A stretch of 40,587 nucleotides of DNA from the IMG/VR virus record IMGVR_UViG_2563366988_000007, positions 1 to 40,587 of that record; one strand, given 5' to 3'. This document shows positions 532 to 25,641 of this stretch, piece after piece. The DNA is from a virus. Taxonomy: Duplodnaviria > Heunggongvirae > Uroviricota > Caudoviricetes. A model generated the notes under the pieces. That model saw only the letters and a list, made by a program, of their open reading frames with translations. It ran no database searches and was not told the origin of the DNA. The stretch's first letter is position 1. Each line of letters starts with the position of its first letter. The position numbers and the translations under genes were made by a program.

Positions 532-1071
532 ATGAAGAAAGTTTTTCTTTGCGCCATCTTAGCCTCCTTAAGCTATCCGGCTATCGCCTCATCATTGCAG
601 GATCAACTCTCGGCTGTCGCAGAAGCGGAACAGCAAGGTAAAAATGAAGAGCAAAGGCAGCATGACGAATGGGTCGCGGAGCGCAACAGGGAAATCCAGC
701 AAGAGAAGCAACGTCGCGCAAACGCCCAGGCCGCGGCTAATAAAAGAGCGGCAACGGCAGCGGCGAATAAGAAAGCTCGTCAGGATAAACTGGACGCCGA
801 AGCCACTGCGGACAAAAAACGCGATCAAAGTTATGAAGATGAGCTACGCAGCTTAGAGATTCAGAAACAAAAACTGGCGCTGGCGAAAGAAGAAGCCCGC
901 GTCAAGCGCGAAAACGAATTTATCGATCAGGAACTGAAGCACAAAGCTGCGCAAACCGATGTGGTGCAATCTGAAGCTGACGCAAACAGAAATATGACTG
1001 AAGGCGGTCGCGATCTGATGAAAAGCGTGGGCAAAGCAGAAGAGAACAAATCGGACAGCTGGTTTAACTAA
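532..1071 (+). CDS. Secreted coiled-coil protein, charged K/E/R/A/Q-rich, unknown function
   Basis: N-terminal signal peptide (MKKVFLCAILASLSYPAIA); SD aggagg 8 nt upstream; same operon as 1-516. Confidence 0.55.
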   Translation: MKKVFLCAILASLSYPAIASSLQDQLSAVAEAEQQGKNEEQRQHDEWVAERNREIQQEKQRRANAQAAANKRAATAAANKKARQDKLDAEATADKKRDQSYEDELRSLEIQKQKLALAKEEARVKRENEFIDQELKHKAAQTDVVQSEADANRNMTEGGRDLMKSVGKAEENKSDSWFN

Positions 1072-1111
1072 GCGATGTCAGTAACTTCAAGCCTATGATT
1101 CGTGAGTATAA

Positions 1112-1141
1112 AAAACCCTCTGTAGTAACAGAGGGTTTTGT
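1112..1141 (+). terminator. Intrinsic terminator (A-tract, 7-bp GC stem ccctctg/cagaggg, T-tract), possibly bidirectional
   Basis: aaaaccctctg-tagtaa-cagagggtttt read directly. Confidence 0.6.
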
Positions 1142-1289
1142 TCATTCATAGTGCAGGGTTCAAATCATTCCCACTCAATTATTTACGATAACCATAACCA
1201 ATTGAGTGATAACATTTTTCCAAATCTCAATTTTTCCCGTACCGTTTTATATACCGTCACCGGAAATCAGTACCATGAAAAATGCCATG

Positions 1290-1772
1290 CTATCTGGTCA
1301 AAGTGTCGTACTGTTTTTCGCAGACTCTTCCGGCTTCGGCTGCCCGGTCAGCATACTCTGCCAGTTGTCTGTTTCTCTCGAGAGATTTGCTGAGCACGTC
1401 GGCAAGCAAAACTCCGGTGTCTGCGGCTGACGACCCAGCGCCGACAATGGCGTTATACTGCCTGAGCTGCTCACGGATGGCAAAGAGTTGTTGCTGCAAC
1501 CGGCCAGCGCTAGCGGCAGCATCAAGAGCATCATTGCGCGCCTGGTCGATCCTCTGCTGAGCTTCACGTTCATTGGTCACTTTCTCCTGTTCGTAGTACT
1601 GACGAACTTTGTCTTCTTCGGCTTTGCGGTCTTCTTCCGCCTGAGCATACCCGGCATCGTACTGGCGACTGCCGTGTATATTCCAGGCAACCACTCCTGA
1701 TATGACCAGAACAGCAAGCACTGCCACGATAAGAAACTGTTTCCAGTATGCTTTTACGAATGCCCAGATCAT
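1290..1772 (-). CDS. Rz-like i-spanin
   Basis: N-terminal TM helix then charged coiled-coil periplasmic domain; directly downstream of endolysin. Confidence 0.65.
1298..1573 (-). CDS. Rz1-like o-spanin lipoprotein embedded out of frame inside Rz
   Basis: Lipoprotein signal [27 protein letters not shown], Pro-rich mature part; AGGAG about 10 nt upstream. Confidence 0.5.
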   Translation of the reverse strand: MNVKLSRGSTRRAMMLLMLPLALAGCSNNSLPSVSSSGSITPLSALGRQPQTPEFCLPTCSANLSRETDNWQSMLTGQPKPEESAKNSTTL

Positions 1773-2398
1773 ACCGCCAGCACCTTACTGGCAGTGATGT
1801 ACCGCGCTCGCCGGTCGTCGATGCCGTTCCGGCCACCATTGATAATCAGAGTTACACGTGCAATATCGCCGGTATACTTCATGCATCCTTTGCTGGCGAA
1901 GAACCACGCCGCGCTACGAGCCGCATATCCGTCCTGCGCCAGCAGTTCAGGGCTCTCCAGCAGGTCAACCTTCAGACCGTTTCCGCAATCACGATAGTTA
2001 TTCAAACCGGTAATCTGGATAAGTCCGCGCCCTCGGTAATTCCAGCCATCACCAGGGGCATTGTTCCCCATGCGTTTGCTGTATACCAGATTTGCGATCG
2101 CGCGCTGGCGCTCAAGTGGCAATGGTGGTTCACCAGCACGGCGCCCCAGTGCATTAGCCTGCCCCTGAGTGAGACGCCCAGCCCGAACGAAGTTAGCCAG
2201 TCCGCTGACACTGTAGTTGAAATTCTCCTGCAACCTGGTGAAGCCCCCAGACTCATGCCCGACTTGAGCAATAAACATTGCCTGATCTTCTGCTTTGCTG
2301 ATACCAAACTCTTTCATCGCAGAAGTTATATGCGAGAACCAGCGTGCGGCCAGTGCCTCGCTGATACCAGCAGCTCGCTGGAATTGTTTAATCTCCAT
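1769..2398 (-). CDS. Endolysin, glycoside hydrolase family 19 (chitinase-like lysozyme)
   Basis: Start at [11 protein letters not shown] with GAGG SD; motifs [22 protein letters not shown] typical of GH19 endolysins; long upstream ORF extension judged non-coding. Confidence 0.8.
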
Positions 2399-2696
2399 GT
2401 TTAGACCTCGATACTTTAAAAATTTGAACGACGTTACCGCGCGTTTTAATAACCGCAGCCAGCATGACAGCGTTGATAATGACCTCAGATAAATCCACAG
2501 CCATTGGCGTACGTAACCAGATTGCATAGGCGACTCGAACAGGAATACTGGCCGCAGCAACAATCAGGAAATAAGCAAGCCATCCTCCCCACCTTCGATG
2601 TTGAGAGCCGTTACGCCGGAATGTGACAACGCGAATTGCTATGCCAGTGCAAATAACTGCATTGGTGATAAGCAAAAAAAACTCATGCGTTACCAT
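2388..2696 (-). CDS. Small membrane protein of lysis cassette (holin/antiholin-like)
   Basis: Two to three predicted TM segments; position between holin and endolysin. Confidence 0.45.
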
Positions 2697-3087
2697 CGTC
2701 TTTTCTCCCCGGAATTAACTCGCGTGGATTATCGGAACGGTGATAGAGCCATATACCAATACGCACAGCGACAATTGCTGACACGAATGCGCCTGCAGAG
2801 AAAACAATCCCTTTTTCAAAAGAGTCCTGCGTGATGGTAGGGATCAGGCTGGCTATGCCGATAAGAATTGATGCTGCTGGTTTGTAAAAGAGAAGGCCGC
2901 AAAGAAAGCTGAGCATCGACAGGAGCACCCGGCGACGGATGGGGTACTCTACTGCAGAGGTAACAAAAATTACCGCCCCAGCCAAAGCCCCTAAAGCAAC
3001 CTCCGGAGGGACACCTGCAATAACCGCAGCAAGAGAACCAAAACTAAGCAACTGATTTAATTGCTCACTTGTTACTTGAGCAGACAT
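2683..3087 (-). CDS. Holin-like membrane protein
   Basis: Multiple hydrophobic helices, charged C-terminus, first gene of lysis cassette. Confidence 0.5.
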   Translation of the reverse strand: MSAQVTSEQLNQLLSFGSLAAVIAGVPPEVALGALAGAVIFVTSAVEYPIRRRVLLSMLSFLCGLLFYKPAASILIGIASLIPTITQDSFEKGIVFSAGAFVSAIVAVRIGIWLYHRSDNPRELIPGRKDDGNA

Positions 3088-3367
3088 ACTTTCTCCTGTT
3101 TACTATCTATAAGCCAGTCAATTATTGATGACTAAACCCGCATAGTAAACCATATATGAATCATTATTGTTCCATATCATATATCTCAATAAAAGTACTA
3201 ATGATTTTACAGAACGAGCCAGCAGAGTGGGGGCAGTTGTACAGGAACCATAGACTTAATTTTGTATTTAATAATGCTATGGTGTAATAAACCTGAACAT
3301 GTATTTAAAATACGTACTGATTCATGATAGAATTCAAAGATAACTTTTCACAAACTCCGTTTTTGAT

Positions 3368-3395
3368 ACCCGCAAAATATTGCGGGCTTTTTTTT
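3368..3395 (+). terminator. Intrinsic terminator oriented on + strand (stem cccgcaa/ttgcggg plus T8)
   Basis: acccgcaaaatattgcgggctttttttt; T-tract only on + side. Confidence 0.45.
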
Positions 3396-6300
3396 AACGT
3401 TCTTCCAGAGACTGAATCCGCTCTTTTATCTTATCCATTTCTCTGCGCTGCCATGCTGCCTCGATATAGAATAAGAGATCAGGTCTGACCCCCCATCTAG
3501 ATCCTGCTGGCGTTATTTCAACGCGCTCAATGATGTCTTCTATTACCATCACTGGATTATCATCCTCATCAACAATGATGCTCCCGTCATTATCAGTCAG
3601 CGGCATTTCCCTTTGGCCAGTAATGACGTCATCATATACTGCGGGATAATCGTCATAGCAAAGAAAGGCATAGCGGCATGTTGTGCTTTCTTCTTCCATG
3701 AGTCCGTGAGAAATAAGAACATCACGAAGTTGCTGCGCGATTACACCATGATGTATCCTCGCCCCTTCTTCCCCCTTTATAGCGACAGCGTTCAGCCATT
3801 TATAAGCGATATACCTGACGTCACCCCAGGCATCCAGCAATGCTTCGTCAGGAGAGACCGGCTCTGTCTTTAATGTTCCGTCACTGGTAACCACAGGATT
3901 GGAGCCAAGATAAACTGTCGAGAACCTGTTTCCCGGACCACCAAGAGCATTTACATTATCAAGATAAGGTTTAACATCTCCGTTCTCAAAAAGATGTTCG
4001 AGTGCGTTATATACCGCGCGACGTGGAGTACTGCTTCCGGAACCATGCAACGTTATCATTGCACCATCTGCTGAAGACGTTGTTTCACCGCCGCTAACGA
4101 TTAATCTCTGAGCGGTAACATCATCAGACGGTACTTTCTTCGCAATAATGGCGTAATTACCCTCAAGTTTGACTTCCGCGCGAACTTGTCCTGATGTACC
4201 TGCATGGACAGTCAGTGACTGGACGGCAACATCATCTGTGAAATCAACGGGTACAGGAACCGTCCTCACGCCTGACGTCGACATAAAAGTAGGAAGCGTT
4301 CTGTTAGGAGTGGCTCCGTAGACAAAATCCCTTGAAACAAATTCTTCCTGTTTAATTTTCACCCTGAAACAATACAAATCAGCCGGGTGACCATCGTGAA
4401 CATAAGGATATTTTCTGTTGTTATCCCCTATGCTCCATGGGTTTAGAAAGTCTTCCCCACCGAAAATGTAGTACAGCCAGTTGTCTTTGATACAAACTGA
4501 ACCAACACCAACCGCAGAGTTAACTATTCCGCCCTGATAAATCTGATCAGTAACATTAACCCACTCTACATTATCCAGACTCCACTCATTGACGTTAACT
4601 CTGGTCATAAATGTTCTTGGATAATTTCCTGCATAACGGTTATCAGGTTCTCCTCCTTCCCACTCACCAAATGCGCGCTCACTGCCAAAAATAATCAGCT
4701 CATCGCCAACTTTGGCAAAAGGAAGGTTTGAGTGATGAACATTATTTGGGAAGCGAAGAGAATTCCATGATGTACCTAAATCAGAGCTTCTGTGCAATGA
4801 ACTACCGGGTTGAGTACTTAATGTCCCCCTGGTCGTCAGATACAGAATGCCATCATAATATTTTACACATGGCTCAGATGCATTCGCCTCATATTCTACA
4901 GGTATGCGTCTGCGAACAAAGCTACCAGGAGAACCGAAAGCATCAGAGAAATAGAGTATCCCAAGCTCGCGTGGACCAATATCACCATTATGGTAGCCAA
5001 CAGCAAAACTGTTATCGCTAATCGTCGCAAAACTGTGAATCTCAGTAACAGGAGTGCTTCCGTCAACAAAAGAAGGAATAGTTCCAAGACTGGTTTTTCT
5101 CCATGGTGACGAGTGAAATGATGTACCAAAACTCCAGTATCTACCCTCGTTATTCTGATCCACATCCTGGGTATTTTGCGTCGTAACTGTAAAAGTATTT
5201 TTATCAATAACAGTAGTCACCGTCATATTCCCGGTAACACCTGTAACACCAGAGTTTGAGAAGTTGACAAAATCACCAGCAAATAATCCGTGATCAGTAA
5301 TGCGAATATAAGCGACTTGCTGATTTGCTGCTTTCGTTATACCACCATAAACGCGAAGGCTGCGACTCATTGGGCGATCCCACAACTCTGCAACCTGCAG
5401 TTTATTTCCGCTCACGGTCCGCGTCTCAATTACAGCAAAAAGGCGATTTCTGACAACCCCCATACTCATGCAGTGATAGTTAACTGTGGGATAGTTTTCA
5501 TGTAAATCTGTAAGCCATTCCGGCGTTGTCCAGGTCTTCCCGTCATCTCCTGAGCGAACCCATGCAACATGGAGGTTATTTACACCATGGCGGTCTCCAG
5601 CCATAAAAGGCGCATAGATGACATTGTCATATACAAACGTTTTATCCTGCGTCCAGGCGTTGTACCACGGTGTATCTGTAATTTTAAATAACTCTCCCTG
5701 GATAAAATCTTCAGAAGCATAAAAAAGAGGCTGGCCCGGTATTCTCTCAAATAAAAAACGAGCATTTTTAAATCGACTGACATCCGGAAGAGTTGATACT
5801 TTAAAAGTAAGCCCTAATCCGTCAATTTTATAACCTGGAGATGAGGCTTCAAGGCACGCGCTTATTGCAGTGGAATCGTCATTTATACCATCACCAACAG
5901 CTCCAAAATCTTTGGGGCTAATAGCATCACGCATTTTATCCTGGAACGTTCGGTACACAGCCCCAGAACCATACTGAATAAACCAACCAAAACCACCAAC
6001 AACCCCGGCGATTGCAGCATCGACATAATTACGCATTGAGCGATTATTTACAGCGTCCTGCTCAAATGATGGATCTGCAAGGTTAGAAATTTTGTTTTGC
6101 TTTGCATCGTAATATTTTGCAAGCAAAGATGGTTTCATCAATGCACGTCTGAACCACCCAAAACATTGCTGGATCAGCATCGTCAGGTAGTCAAAGGCAT
6201 CTTCATGCACTTCGGGGAAAAATTTTCCCTGATTGCGAAGGTCTGTCTCCTGCACTACATCAAGCACACGATCTATCGTAATTCGCCATCCAGTAGCAAG

Positions 6301-6513
6301 CGGAGACGGAAGAACCACAGAACCGCCACTATAAGTGCCCGCCCCAGTTACCGTATAACCGGTATCCAGAACCAATTCTGTTACGTTCCCGTTCAGGTCA
6401 GACACCTGAACAACCAGGTCTGATTTTCTGAAAATTCGAAAAGTATACGGAAACGATGTCGTAACGCCGTTACCGGTGTATTCGTTGTGGTCAACTTCGG
6501 TTGAGACCGTCAT
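3394..6513 (-). CDS. Tailspike/depolymerase: epsilon15-type N-terminal anchor, beta-helix-like central domain, C-terminal intramolecular chaperone (peptidase S74-like)
   Basis: N-term MTVSTEVDHNEYTGNGVTTSFPY; FGAVGDGINDDSTAI motif; Asp-box-like SGDDGKTW and SSDLGTSW; C-terminal SDGTLK cleavage-type motif. Confidence 0.8.
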   Translation of the reverse strand: MTVSTEVDHNEYTGNGVTTSFPYTFRIFRKSDLVVQVSDLNGNVTELVLDTGYTVTGAGTYSGGSVVLPSPLATGWRITIDRVLDVVQETDLRNQGKFFPEVHEDAFDYLTMLIQQCFGWFRRALMKPSLLAKYYDAKQNKISNLADPSFEQDAVNNRSMRNYVDAAIAGVVGGFGWFIQYGSGAVYRTFQDKMRDAISPKDFGAVGDGINDDSTAISACLEASSPGYKIDGLGLTFKVSTLPDVSRFKNARFLFERIPGQPLFYASEDFIQGELFKITDTPWYNAWTQDKTFVYDNVIYAPFMAGDRHGVNNLHVAWVRSGDDGKTWTTPEWLTDLHENYPTVNYHCMSMGVVRNRLFAVIETRTVSGNKLQVAELWDRPMSRSLRVYGGITKAANQQVAYIRITDHGLFAGDFVNFSNSGVTGVTGNMTVTTVIDKNTFTVTTQNTQDVDQNNEGRYWSFGTSFHSSPWRKTSLGTIPSFVDGSTPVTEIHSFATISDNSFAVGYHNGDIGPRELGILYFSDAFGSPGSFVRRRIPVEYEANASEPCVKYYDGILYLTTRGTLSTQPGSSLHRSSDLGTSWNSLRFPNNVHHSNLPFAKVGDELIIFGSERAFGEWEGGEPDNRYAGNYPRTFMTRVNVNEWSLDNVEWVNVTDQIYQGGIVNSAVGVGSVCIKDNWLYYIFGGEDFLNPWSIGDNNRKYPYVHDGHPADLYCFRVKIKQEEFVSRDFVYGATPNRTLPTFMSTSGVRTVPVPVDFTDDVAVQSLTVHAGTSGQVRAEVKLEGNYAIIAKKVPSDDVTAQRLIVSGGETTSSADGAMITLHGSGSSTPRRAVYNALEHLFENGDVKPYLDNVNALGGPGNRFSTVYLGSNPVVTSDGTLKTEPVSPDEALLDAWGDVRYIAYKWLNAVAIKGEEGARIHHGVIAQQLRDVLISHGLMEEESTTCRYAFLCYDDYPAVYDDVITGQREMPLTDNDGSIIVDEDDNPVMVIEDIIERVEITPAGSRWGVRPDLLFYIEAAWQRREMDKIKERIQSLEER

Positions 6514-6708: not shown

Positions 6709-6966
6709 ATGCAGCAGTATCACTATCCACTGGAAGACGGATTTACCGAAAGGATTCACACGCCGGGAGGCGTCAGGTCACTGGTGGAGGGATCGCACTT
6801 GATGAAATTACTCCGGGATCTCGATAAGGATGGATTTAATGTCGATGGCCCACTTGCCGAACTGACTGCACTGATTAACTACGTCACCAGCTCACAGATG
6901 TCTATGCGGGATCTGCAAACACATCTCGACTATTGTGCCGAACAATTACGAAAACAAACCAGATAA
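6709..6966 (+). CDS. Small SOS-regulated protein, candidate antirepressor (Tum-like logic); paralogous to C-terminal domain of adjacent Bro-N protein
   Basis: GGAG SD 8 nt upstream of ATG; LexA box in promoter; shared motifs HTPGGV/HSPSGV, AEL, RDLQTH/RDIQTH with 7282-7977 C-terminus. Confidence 0.55.
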   Translation: MQQYHYPLEDGFTERIHTPGGVRSLVEGSHLMKLLRDLDKDGFNVDGPLAELTALINYVTSSQMSMRDLQTHLDYCAEQLRKQTR

Positions 6967-7281: not shown

Positions 7282-7977
7282 ATGACAGCTACAAAAAGCA
7301 CGTCCATTTTTTCTTTCGAATCCCAAGCCGATATACGGGTAATCGTCATTAATGGTGAGCCATGGTTTATCGCTTCAGATGTTTGTCGGGCTATAGGCAT
7401 AGCAAACCATCGAGATGCTGTTCGAAAACTTGATGATGATGAGAAGGGCGTCGCTTCAACCGACACCCCTGGCGGTGAGCAAGAATCGATCATCATCTCC
7501 GAGTCAGGCCTCTACACACTGATCCTCCGCTGCCGCGACGCAGTGACACCAGGCACTATCCCCTACCGCTTTCGTAAATGGGTTACAGGTGAGGTTCTTC
7601 CTCAGATCCGCCGCACCGGAAGCTACATTAAAAACTCGCTCCCGCAGGAAGAACGCATAAAGATGGTTGCCGACCAGGTAGCCAACGCCACGGCGTCAGC
7701 AGTAATGCAGGCGATGAAGATAGAGAACAAAACCTACAGCGCCCCGCTGAAGCCCGGCTACCGCAGCCTGATTCACTCGCCGTCTGGTGTTCTCGGCCTG
7801 ACGGAAAACTCACTGCTGATGAATCTGCTGAACCAGTTACAGGACGACGGGCACGACGTATCGGGCGCGGCGGCGGAGCTGACCACCATGTTCTGCTACA
7901 TCGTCGGTGTGAGCAAATGCCTGCGTGATATCCAGACCCACGCGGAATACATCAACGACAAGGCAGGGTTCTTCTGA
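7282..7977 (+). CDS. Antirepressor, Bro-N domain protein with C-terminal domain shared with 6709-6966
   Basis: Bro-N signature IRVIVINGEPWFIASDVCRAIGI...SESGLYTLIL; SD aaaagg. Confidence 0.75.
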   Translation: MTATKSTSIFSFESQADIRVIVINGEPWFIASDVCRAIGIANHRDAVRKLDDDEKGVASTDTPGGEQESIIISESGLYTLILRCRDAVTPGTIPYRFRKWVTGEVLPQIRRTGSYIKNSLPQEERIKMVADQVANATASAVMQAMKIENKTYSAPLKPGYRSLIHSPSGVLGLTENSLLMNLLNQLQDDGHDVSGAAAELTTMFCYIVGVSKCLRDIQTHAEYINDKAGFF

Positions 7978-8076: not shown

Positions 8077-8244
8077 ATGACAGCGTTGAAAAATCGTACT
8101 CAGCACAATGAACAAGCCAAGCAATGCTGGGATGTCATTGGAAAAGTTATGCTTGGCCGCGCAAGCAAAGAGCGCGACAAGGATATGGTTTACCAGACAG
8201 GAACATCTTTCAGCGACTTCAAGGCGGCATTTCGCTCCAAATAG
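8077..8244 (+). CDS. Small protein (55 aa), unknown function; not in ORF track (below length cutoff)
   Basis: Strong SD AAGGAGG 7 nt upstream of ATG; translation MTALKNRTQHNEQAKQCWDVIGKVMLGRASKERDKDMVYQTGTSFSDFKAAFRSK. Confidence 0.4.
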   Translation: MTALKNRTQHNEQAKQCWDVIGKVMLGRASKERDKDMVYQTGTSFSDFKAAFRSK

Positions 8245-8264
8245 AAGCACATCAGGAGTTTTCC

Positions 8265-8705
8265 TTGAAGTTTAACATTAGAATATCTAATAGTTTTCTA
8301 CATGGGGAAAGCAACACCCCTTTCGCTGTAGACGGACCTTTCCTTACTGATGATGAAATAAAAATCATACAAAGTTTTTTAGAGGATGTTGCCAATGGAA
8401 GGGCGCTTGTTGGAAAAAACAAGCCCTCGTGGGTTGATGATAACCATGATAAAATTCCCGGCTCAGACAATTATGAGCAAGAGAATTATTGGCATTATCA
8501 TTGTGGGCCAACATGGTATCCAAACACATTTAAGAATTATACCATTAACTTAAATTTCAACCCTGGCGGAAGGCATTCTAATGAATGCATTCATTATGCA
8601 AAAAATGATAATGAAATTGTCATTGTTGGATTTTCAAGAGAACACATACCTTTCCTTTCATCAGATGGAAACAACAATCCGCTTTTTAATGATGAAGAAG
8701 AATAG
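8265..8705 (+). CDS. AT-rich moron protein (146 aa from TTG start; alternative ATG start at 8124), unknown function
   Basis: AGGAG SD 6 nt before in-frame TTG; no internal Met; low-GC codon usage unlike flanking phage genes; followed by terminator. Confidence 0.4.
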   Translation: MKFNIRISNSFLHGESNTPFAVDGPFLTDDEIKIIQSFLEDVANGRALVGKNKPSWVDDNHDKIPGSDNYEQENYWHYHCGPTWYPNTFKNYTINLNFNPGGRHSNECIHYAKNDNEIVIVGFSREHIPFLSSDGNNNPLFNDEEE

Positions 8706-25564: not shown

Positions 25565-25641
25565 GTGGCATTAGCTCAGTTGGACAGAGCAACCGCCTTC
25601 TAAGCGGTTGGTCGCAGGTTCGAATCCTGCATGCCACGCCA
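25565..25641 (+). tRNA. tRNA-Arg, anticodon UCU
   Basis: Cloverleaf folded by hand: acceptor GTGGCAT/ATGCCAC, D-arm GCTC/GAGC, anticodon stem ACCGC/GCGGT with loop CTTCTAA, T-arm GCAGG-TTCGAAT-CCTGC, discriminator G, encoded CCA. Confidence 0.85.

Follow-up and report, generated by a model that had tools for sequence, protein, structure and literature searches.

The tailspike gene of this virus raises the question of which surface polymer its product is built to attack, and of how the parts of a seemingly mosaic protein came to be joined. The gene lies in a 40,587-nucleotide stretch of DNA (IMG/VR record IMGVR_UViG_2563366988_000007; hereinafter the window, meaning the whole of the stretch that was analyzed). 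A first-pass annotation, made from the letters alone, had described the protein as a mosaic in which an epsilon15-type anchor is followed by a depolymerase core and, at the C-terminus, by a self-cleaving chaperone, and Pfam and PDB matches together with alignments bore out this partition. From its domain architecture, the conservation of its catalytic and cleavage residues, its genomic context and its near-identity to characterized genes, we conclude that the protein is almost certainly a K1-capsule endosialidase mounted on an epsilon15-type anchor, and that it belongs to a temperate Uetakevirus podophage infecting K1 Escherichia coli. Neonatal-meningitis E. coli, like many extraintestinal ones, owe their virulence chiefly to the K1 capsule; endosialidases serve as reagents for the removal of polysialic acid, and phages specific for K1 are therapeutic candidates. 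The gene is nothing new in kind, as the protein, its architecture and the phage have already been published, and a near-identical gene is known from phage vB_EcoP_ZX5 (hereinafter ZX5). Its value is a modest one: it offers a clean case of tailspike modularity, in which one capsule-cutting cassette is found on two virion anchors in prophages with a common host.

The tailspike gene and its N-terminal anchor

The gene is a single uninterrupted reading frame (Table 1) with a GGAG 8 nt 5′ of the ATG, and it encodes a precursor with a computed mass of 115.6 kDa. The GC-rich stem-loop directly after its stop codon has an A-run on the gene side, with a T-run next on the plus strand; we found no convincing sigma-70-like promoter for the minus strand in the interval that separates the spike gene from its divergent upstream neighbor. 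The gene is 100% identical to annotated genes of E. coli SF-468 and other strains, and is present in full in 72 of 5426 complete E. coli genomes, including those of the K1 strains APEC O1, O1:K1:H7 APEC isolates, IHE3034 and O7:K1 CE10. A search of NCBIfam with the protein returned no family; its Pfam and PDB matches have e-values of 1e-10 to 0, so the motifs described below are not chance patterns.

Table 1. Coordinates in the window of the tailspike gene, its modules and motifs, and associated features
Feature	Residues	Position	Strand	Basis
Complete tailspike gene	1–1039 + stop	3394..6513	minus	ORF list; ATG start, uninterrupted
N-terminal virion-binding module, epsilon15/Uetakevirus type	1–200	5914..6513	minus	homology to epsilon15 gp20, phiV10 gp25, phiv142-3, Dpo31
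Module joint	201–233	5815..5913	minus	four-way alignment; contains DFGAVGDGINDDSTAI
Endosialidase N-terminal extension	205–271	5701..5901	minus	PF12218, E=5.9e-32, full profile 1–67
Catalytic six-bladed β-propeller (GH58)	272–721	4351..5700	minus	PF12217, E=3.7e-233, profile 1–367/367
Asp-box SGDDGKTW	321–328	5530–5553	minus	S-x-D-x-G-x-x-W
β-barrel inserted in propeller	383–465	5119..5367	minus	PF12195, E=3.2e-46, profile 1–83/83
Asp-box SSDLGTSW	576–583	4765–4788	minus	S-x-D-x-G-x-x-W
Stalk (tail-spike) domain with triple β-helix	722–876	3886..4350	minus	PF12219, E=8.4e-78
C-terminal intramolecular chaperone (Peptidase_S74), 18.7 kDa	877–1039	3397..3885	minus	PF13884, PDB 3gw6
Cassette shared with CUS-3 siaK1, 2393 nt	234–1030	3423..5815	minus	megablast, 99.5% identity; nucleotide-level breakpoints
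GC-rich stem-loop directly after the stop codon		3369..3386		terminator scan and sequence
att core ATTGAGTGGGAATGATT of epsilon15, phiV10 and ZX5; prophage end adjoining yfgI		1163..1179	minus	exact single match

The first-pass annotation had likened the N-terminal 110 residues to the epsilon15/phiV10 anchor; this likeness is real and longer than claimed, with aa 1–165 sharing 73% identity with residues 1–161 of epsilon15 gp20 and 70% with the same residues of phiV10 gp25. Across further epsilon15-like phages of Salmonella and E. coli identity is 64–72%, and over aa 1–200 the module is 98% identical to the tail fibre of the Uetakevirus phiv142-3. Beyond the first ~165 residues the receptor-binding parts of epsilon15 and phiV10 are unrelated to that of the present tailspike: the epsilon15 spike carries a β-helix endorhamnosidase and an esterase petal domain (bioRxiv 10.64898/2026.07.31.742079). 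Residues 1–180 also match D1–D2 of the solved tailspike Dpo31 (PDB 8ck1/28lx; E=1.5e-32), and it is from this match that we assign the predicted fold, a β-sandwich knob followed by a coiled-coil shaft. As D1 of Dpo31 was placed at the virion base in a cryo-EM map (PMC13317679), the anchor would, by analogy with this homologous domain, attach to the tail hub. The module has no match in Pfam or NCBIfam. A T7 gp17-type N-terminal domain, the name used in the ZX5 paper, was considered and rejected: no T7 tail-fibre family of Pfam was recovered at E≤0.1, and global alignment with the N-terminus of K1F gp17 gave ~20% identity. An AlphaFold2 model of aa 1–242 computed without an alignment was unusable (mean pLDDT 34.5, pTM 0.21).

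Endosialidase core, stalk and a predicted self-cleaving chaperone

All four endosialidase domains, named End_N_terminal, End_beta_propel, End_beta_barrel and End_tail_spike in Pfam, and Peptidase_S74 exceed their curated cut-offs, the propeller profile PF12217 (End_beta_propel) with 773.5 bits against 24. Searches of the PDB recovered the K1F endosialidase endoNF (1v0e/3gvl, E=0 over aa 205–876) and the phi92 endosialidase (4hiz, E=2e-271). EndoNF (gp17 of phage K1F; PDB 1v0e, 3gvl, 3gw6) shares its order of domains, N-terminal extension through chaperone, with the tailspike and is 63% identical to it over aa 196–1039, with 67% identity in the β-barrel and lower values in the stalk (56%) and chaperone domain (51%). 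Relative to endoNF the tailspike has a 7-residue insertion in the FVDGSTP region (aa ~482–488), and the two proteins differ in their N-termini, endoNF having a T7 gp17-type adaptor in place of the epsilon15-type anchor. The residues H309, R515, E547, R562 and R613 are conserved and correspond to H350, R549, E581, R596 and R647 of endoNF, whose catalytic roles have been described (PMC12632334). Judged by these matches, the core is a GH58 endosialidase consisting of a β-propeller with an inserted β-barrel. Both Asp-box-like motifs that the first-pass annotation had pointed out are present (beginning at aa 321 and 576), without the conclusion of a sialidase having been drawn from them there. That annotation had further called the receptor specificity unknown, a statement that no longer holds: the receptor is very probably the α-2,8-polysialic acid of the K1 capsule, because the core shares 63% identity with the crystallized K1F enzyme and ~99% with the endosialidase of prophage CUS-3, the siaK1 record of which reads 'endo-alpha-sialidase activity, evidence IDA, PMID 16689790'.

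Alignment to the stalk stops exactly at the end of the mature endoNF chain (1v0e/3gvl), which predicts T876 as the mature C-terminus of the tailspike. Of the endoNF residues R837, S848 and Q853, which we take to be the polysialic acid-binding site of the stalk, the first two are conserved as R803 and S814, and the third is replaced by M819. In the C-terminal domain, PF13884 matches aa 877–937 with 41.4 bits (cut-off 22) and PDB 3gw6, comprising the endoNF stalk and chaperone domain, aligns over aa 757–1038 (E=1.4e-93). Further chaperone-bearing spikes matched in the PDB are 9vvr, 7y5s, 3gud and 6eu4. The cleavage that had been proposed before SDGTLK (aa 877–882, preceded by NPVVT) falls in register with Ser911 of endoNF, and the Ser-Lys dyad S877/K882 and R863 are conserved as the counterparts of endoNF S911/K916 and R897, the roles of which are known (PMC8326128). 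We accordingly predict that a cut between T876 and S877 sets free a chaperone domain of ~18.7 kDa.

Taken together with the anchor, these modules suggest how the spike might work, and it is in this form that we infer its enzymatic activity, cleavage and attachment to the virion. By homology, three chains would assemble into a trimer, which the first ~200 residues (knob and coiled-coil shaft) would fix to the virion tail. Residues ~205–876, comprising the β-propeller, β-barrel and triple-β-helix stalk, would constitute the endosialidase that binds and endo-cleaves α-2,8-polysialic acid, and such cleavage would open the phage a path across the K1 capsule as far as the outer membrane. The chaperone domains would cut themselves off between T876 and S877 by means of the S877/K882 dyad, leaving a mature spike of 97 kDa. 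None of our observations speaks against this account.

The prophage, phage ZX5 and alternative readings

The element carrying the gene is a Uetakevirus (epsilon15-like) prophage that has integrated into a K1 ExPEC chromosome at its guaA att site, and the att core at its end is quoted here from PMC9782041. The prophage keeps its lysis (membrane-protein/holin/endolysin/spanin), structural and integrase genes in the window. Gene order around the spike agrees with that of epsilon15 and phiV10, where the spike gene likewise lies upstream of a membrane-protein/holin/endolysin cassette; both of these phages, unlike the window, carry receptor-modifying genes after the spike gene. ORF7 of ZX5 (QTH80017.1; MW722083), a phage classified as a Uetakevirus, is 99.9% identical to the tailspike gene at the nucleotide level over the whole 3120 nt, and its neighbors (membrane protein, holin, endolysin, DUF2514 spanin, divergent small ORF and antirepressor) and att core at guaA are those of the window prophage. 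ORF7 has been annotated with N-terminal tail-fibre, endosialidase and intramolecular chaperone domains, and ZX5 is temperate, forms plaques on and lysogenizes an O87:H52:K1 strain, and reaches 1e7 PFU/mL by spontaneous induction (PMC9782041). There is essentially no difference between the two, except that the window shows the phage as an integrated prophage, in an ExPEC chromosome whose sequence of the gene matches SF-468 at 100%; the ZX5 paper makes no mention of the CUS-3 cassette considered below and gives no map of the catalytic or cleavage residues (PMC9782041).

The identification of the core as an endosialidase has to be weighed against a right-handed, pectate-lyase-like β-helix depolymerase with an unknown O-antigen or capsule as its substrate. 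The sequence DFGAVGDGINDDSTAI (aa 202–217) is the motif that opens many β-helix depolymerases, in the Uetakevirus phiv142-3 this motif precedes a receptor-binding domain that is not an endosialidase, and there is a weak match to PF12708 at aa 201–221. This match, however, covers 21 residues and scores 14.3 bits where the cut-off is 27 (E=0.035), and crystal structures of endosialidases align with the whole of aa 205–876 at E=0, by which the β-helix reading is refuted and its probability reduced to next to nothing. The GAVGDG..DD motif that the first-pass annotation had listed as a β-helix signature does exist (GAVGDG at aa 204), but it is no mark of a β-helix: the stretch belongs to the endosialidase N-terminal extension (PF12218) leading into the propeller.

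With the endosialidase identification in place, its specificity might still be shifted, for example to the alternating α-2,8/2,9 polymer of K92 or to O-acetylated polysialic acid only. We consider this highly improbable, since the catalytic part has ~99% protein identity to the enzyme of CUS-3, whose source is a K1 strain and whose record cites an assay of endo-α-sialidase activity, and the hosts are K1; on the other side stand the strong homology of the enzyme of phi92, for which E. coli K92 is the recorded host, and the one residue of the presumed stalk site that is unlike endoNF. There is similarly little to recommend the view of the gene as a decayed, nonfunctional chromosomal remnant that no longer yields an active spike. 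It does sit in a prophage, and damaged endosialidase genes are found in some K1 genomes (a frameshift disrupts the CUS-3 copy of CE10, and EC21GDE043 has a copy truncated by IS3), but the reading frame is intact with all functional residues conserved, it is ~0.1% off the gene of a plaque-forming, spontaneously induced phage, and the lysis, structural and integrase genes are retained, all of which makes decay very unlikely.

A cassette shared with CUS-3

The K1-directed endosialidase of the window has its counterpart on a different anchor in SiaK1 of the P22-like Lederbergvirus CUS-3 (CP000711), where aa 175–971 correspond to aa 234–1030 of the tailspike with 99.5% nucleotide identity and comprise the same catalytic propeller, barrel, stalk and chaperone domain. 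The N-terminus of the CUS-3 protein is a P22-type head-binding domain wholly unlike the epsilon15-type anchor, and the endosialidase parts themselves have diverged in their first ~30 and last ~10–14 residues. The breakpoints of the cassette, at aa 233/234 and ~aa 1026–1031, fall inside the endosialidase coding region, and its flanks are homologous between the two gene types but only ~55–75% identical. In a four-way alignment the module joint is Uetakevirus-like at its start and endosialidase-like at its end; its nucleotide identity to CUS-3 is ~55–65%, rising sharply to ~100% at nt 699 of the gene. A tblastn search of the phage collection with the joint region (aa 190–259) gave 100% identity only in ZX5 and two unannotated Phi05 records, and a third parent sought there did not emerge, the next best match being CUS-3 with 61%.

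Among nine sequences compared, fixed differences between the two gene types were seen at 3 of 2377 core sites and at least seven polymorphisms were common to both; the Uetakevirus copy of CE10 has three variants otherwise found only in CUS-3-type copies. CUS-3 often occurs in the same chromosome as the Uetakevirus prophage, and lies beside tRNA-Arg and intS in one genome. The 5′ end of the CUS-3-type gene was matched over its full length in 187 genomes. Because the gene types share polymorphisms, repeated exchange of the cassette is suggested, and we are evenly divided on whether the 2.4-kb endosialidase cassette has repeatedly passed by gene conversion between two unrelated prophages of the same K1 chromosome, the epsilon15-like one at guaA and the P22-like CUS-3. 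If this is true, prophages that reside together would help to keep one another's receptor-binding modules suited to the capsule of their host. In CUS-3 the neuO O-acetyltransferase gene adjoins the spike gene, whereas the window prophage has no gene in that slot. One hit, a 99% match confined to the end of the chaperone domain, was examined as a candidate mosaic partner and discarded: it proved to be what an IS3 element has left of a CUS-3 copy, and it adjoins tRNA-Arg, intS and an acyltransferase gene.

Domain organization and predicted function of the tailspike

The spike gene is uninterrupted, starts with an ATG preceded 8 nt upstream by GGAG, and encodes 1039 aa; the overlapping or antisense ORFs within it are at most 108 aa long, and we found no support for any of them. 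In a Pfam search of the protein, five domains scored over the curated cut-offs, with an endosialidase β-barrel inserted in a full-profile match to the endosialidase β-propeller (see table). The mosaic of epsilon15-type anchor, depolymerase core and self-cleaving chaperone proposed in the first-pass annotation is correct, the architecture combining an epsilon15-type N-terminus, Pfam endosialidase domains and Peptidase_S74, and all the motifs that it quoted are present (GAVGDG at aa 204, SGDDGKTW at aa 321, SSDLGTSW at aa 576, and NPVVT-SDGTLK at aa 872-882). Its "β-helix signature" for the core is unsupported, PF12708 covering just 21 residues below threshold, and that reading was rejected. The near-full-length match of the PHROG profile phrog_13893 (648 positions) to aa 1-647 shows that shortened forms of this chimeric spike, ending within the propeller, are present among phage and prophage records.

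Sequence matches to solved structures identify the core. The mature K1F endosialidase endoNF (1v0e, 3gvl; E=0) and the phi92 endosialidase (4hiz; E=2e-271) align end to end with aa 205-876, and the endoNF stalk-plus-chaperone construct 3gw6 aligns with aa 757-1038 (E=1.4e-93). Full-length K1F gp17 is 63% identical to aa 196-1039, falling by domain from 70% in the propeller through 67% in the barrel and 56% in the stalk to 51% in the chaperone domain. The reported catalytic residues of endoNF, H350, R549, E581, R596 and R647 (PMC12632334), are all conserved in the alignment as H309, R515, E547, R562 and R613. Likewise, the autocleavage dyad S911/K916 and the nearby R897 of endoNF (PMC8326128) have S877, K882 and R863 as counterparts, and T876 aligns with the last residue of the mature endoNF chain; the earlier prediction of a cleavage point before SDGTLK thus coincides exactly with the known site. 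By calculation, the precursor has a mass of 115.6 kDa, and cleavage would yield a mature chain of 97.0 kDa and a released domain of 18.7 kDa.

By homology with endoNF, we consider it highly probable that three spike chains would fold with the aid of the C-terminal domain, which would then cut itself off at T876|S877, and that the trimer, docked on the tail via its N-terminal arm, would depolymerize the K1 capsule with its propeller active site and polySia-binding domains, bringing the virion to the outer membrane; K1 encapsulation would thus set the host range. The earlier statement that specificity is unknown is wrong. An endosialidase tailspike of this kind is already known: the spike gene is 99.9% identical to ORF7 of vB_EcoP_ZX5, a temperate phage that has been isolated (O87:H52:K1 host, guaA integration). 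The authors of the ZX5 paper (PMC9782041) divided the ORF7 product into the same three parts: an N-terminal tail-fiber domain, the endosialidase and, last, an intramolecular chaperone.

Features of the prophage (window nucleotides) and domains of the spike protein (aa)
Feature	Position	Strand	Remarks
yfgH, yfgI	window start		chromosomal genes
att core ATTGAGTGGGAATGATT	1163-1179		common to epsilon15, phiV10 and ZX5
Spanin, then GH19 endolysin, holin, membrane protein, spike gene	past att core	-
Spacer	3088-3393		306 bp, AT-rich; spike gene to membrane-protein/holin genes
54-aa ORF	3324..3488	+	crosses spacer edge, extends antisense into spike gene
Hairpin CCCGCAAAATATTGCGGG	3369-3386		GC-rich; abuts spike stop codon
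Spike gene	3394..6513	-	endosialidase tailspike
Antirepressor-type genes, divergent; virion structural genes	beyond spike gene
85-aa ORF	6709-6966	+	divergent from spike gene; phrog_450
BRO-N antirepressor	7282-7977	+	two genes from 85-aa ORF
193-aa ORF	8124-8705	+	phrog_5954 (unknown function); G+C 0.437 (low)
tRNA-Arg (anticodon TCT)	25565-25641	+	surrounding structural genes on opposite strand
Integrase-sized ORF	window end
End_N_terminal	aa 205-271		Pfam
End_beta_propel	aa 272-721		Pfam; E=3.7e-233, full profile
End_beta_barrel	aa 383-465		Pfam; insertion in propeller
End_tail_spike	aa 722-876		Pfam
Peptidase_S74	aa 877-937		Pfam

Mosaic structure and possible exchange of the endosialidase cassette

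The N-terminal 165 residues are 73% identical to epsilon15 gp20, 70% to phiV10 gp25 and 64-72% to the spikes of other epsilon15-like phages, with weaker relatives in many podophages. Only one of their relatives has a solved structure, Dpo31 from Cobetia phage Carin-1 (8ck1/28lx; E=1.5e-32, aa 1-180), in which a β-sandwich (D1) at the virion base is followed by a hinged coiled coil (D2) (PMC13317679); this layout fits the thin, flexible phage-binding arm of epsilon15 gp20 (bioRxiv 10.64898/2026.07.31.742079). AlphaFold gave no usable model of aa 1-242 from the single sequence (pLDDT 34.5).

The two parts have separate close relatives. The tail-fiber gene of Uetakevirus phiv142-3 is 98.5% identical to spike gene nt 1-582 (aa 1-194), but past the common DFGAxGDGIxDD motif its product has an unrelated receptor-binding domain. 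Conversely, siaK1 of the P22-like prophage CUS-3, whose GenBank entry refers to a direct assay of endo-alpha-sialidase activity, is 99.5% identical to nt 699-3091 (aa 234-1030; window 3423-5815) but has its own, unlike head-binding N-terminus. The borders of this block are sharp, with flanks that are still endosialidase-like but only ~55-75% identical. The joint (aa 201-233) matches ZX5 and Phi05 at 100% and has a close match in no other record of the phage collection. The G+C content of the spike gene is 42-45%, versus ~49-52% across most of the prophage.

Annotated genes 100% identical to the spike gene occur in E. coli SF-468 and four further complete genomes, and 72 of the 5426 complete genomes carry the full-length gene; among them are the named K1 strains APEC O1, IHE3034 and O7:K1 CE10. 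Uetakevirus-type and CUS-3-type endosialidase genes are found together in IHE3034, APEC O18, CE10, VR50, EC69 and E15. A single old transfer and repeated exchange of the cassette can be weighed on a 2377-nt core alignment of five Uetakevirus-type and four CUS-3-type copies: only three differences are fixed between the types, at least seven polymorphisms are common to both, and the CE10 Uetakevirus copy has three variants otherwise seen only in CUS-3-type copies. In this small sample of nine aligned copies, these patterns tentatively favor recurrent exchange over a single ancient transfer. A single-base insertion at alignment position 2064 disrupts the reading frame of the CE10 CUS-3-type gene (NC_017646.1 836444-839390), and the Uetakevirus-type copy on the same chromosome is intact. 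In E. coli EC21GDE043, a CUS-3 remnant (locus coordinates 3969-4622) adjoining tRNA-Arg and intS has its endosialidase gene severed by an IS3-family element and reduced to the last ~650 nt, the chaperone-domain end, and keeps the adjacent acyltransferase gene.

Prophage surroundings

The window prophage is an integrated Uetakevirus. The spacer next to the spike gene has no wholly contained ORF of more than 43 aa. The same slot holds receptor-modifying genes in epsilon15 and phiV10 (an O-antigen ligase-family gene together with a polymerase inhibitor, and the O-acetyltransferase oac), and in CUS-3 neuO adjoins the endosialidase gene; therefore, this K1-specific Uetakevirus seems to have no gene for modifying capsule or O-antigen where one would usually lie. 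The hairpin is flanked toward the gene by an A-run and, on the + strand, by a T-run, so that in a simple scan it looks like a terminator of + strand (antisense) transcription, not of the spike mRNA.

The 85-aa ORF is in the same position as epsilon15 gp19 and phiV10 p24; phrog_450 is also matched by aa 148-229, the C-terminal third, of the BRO-N antirepressor, and the ORF looks like a free-standing copy of that domain. A tRNA-Arg gene also lies within the prophage. The phrog_5954 ORF, between the antirepressor and the virion structural genes, may be a moron.
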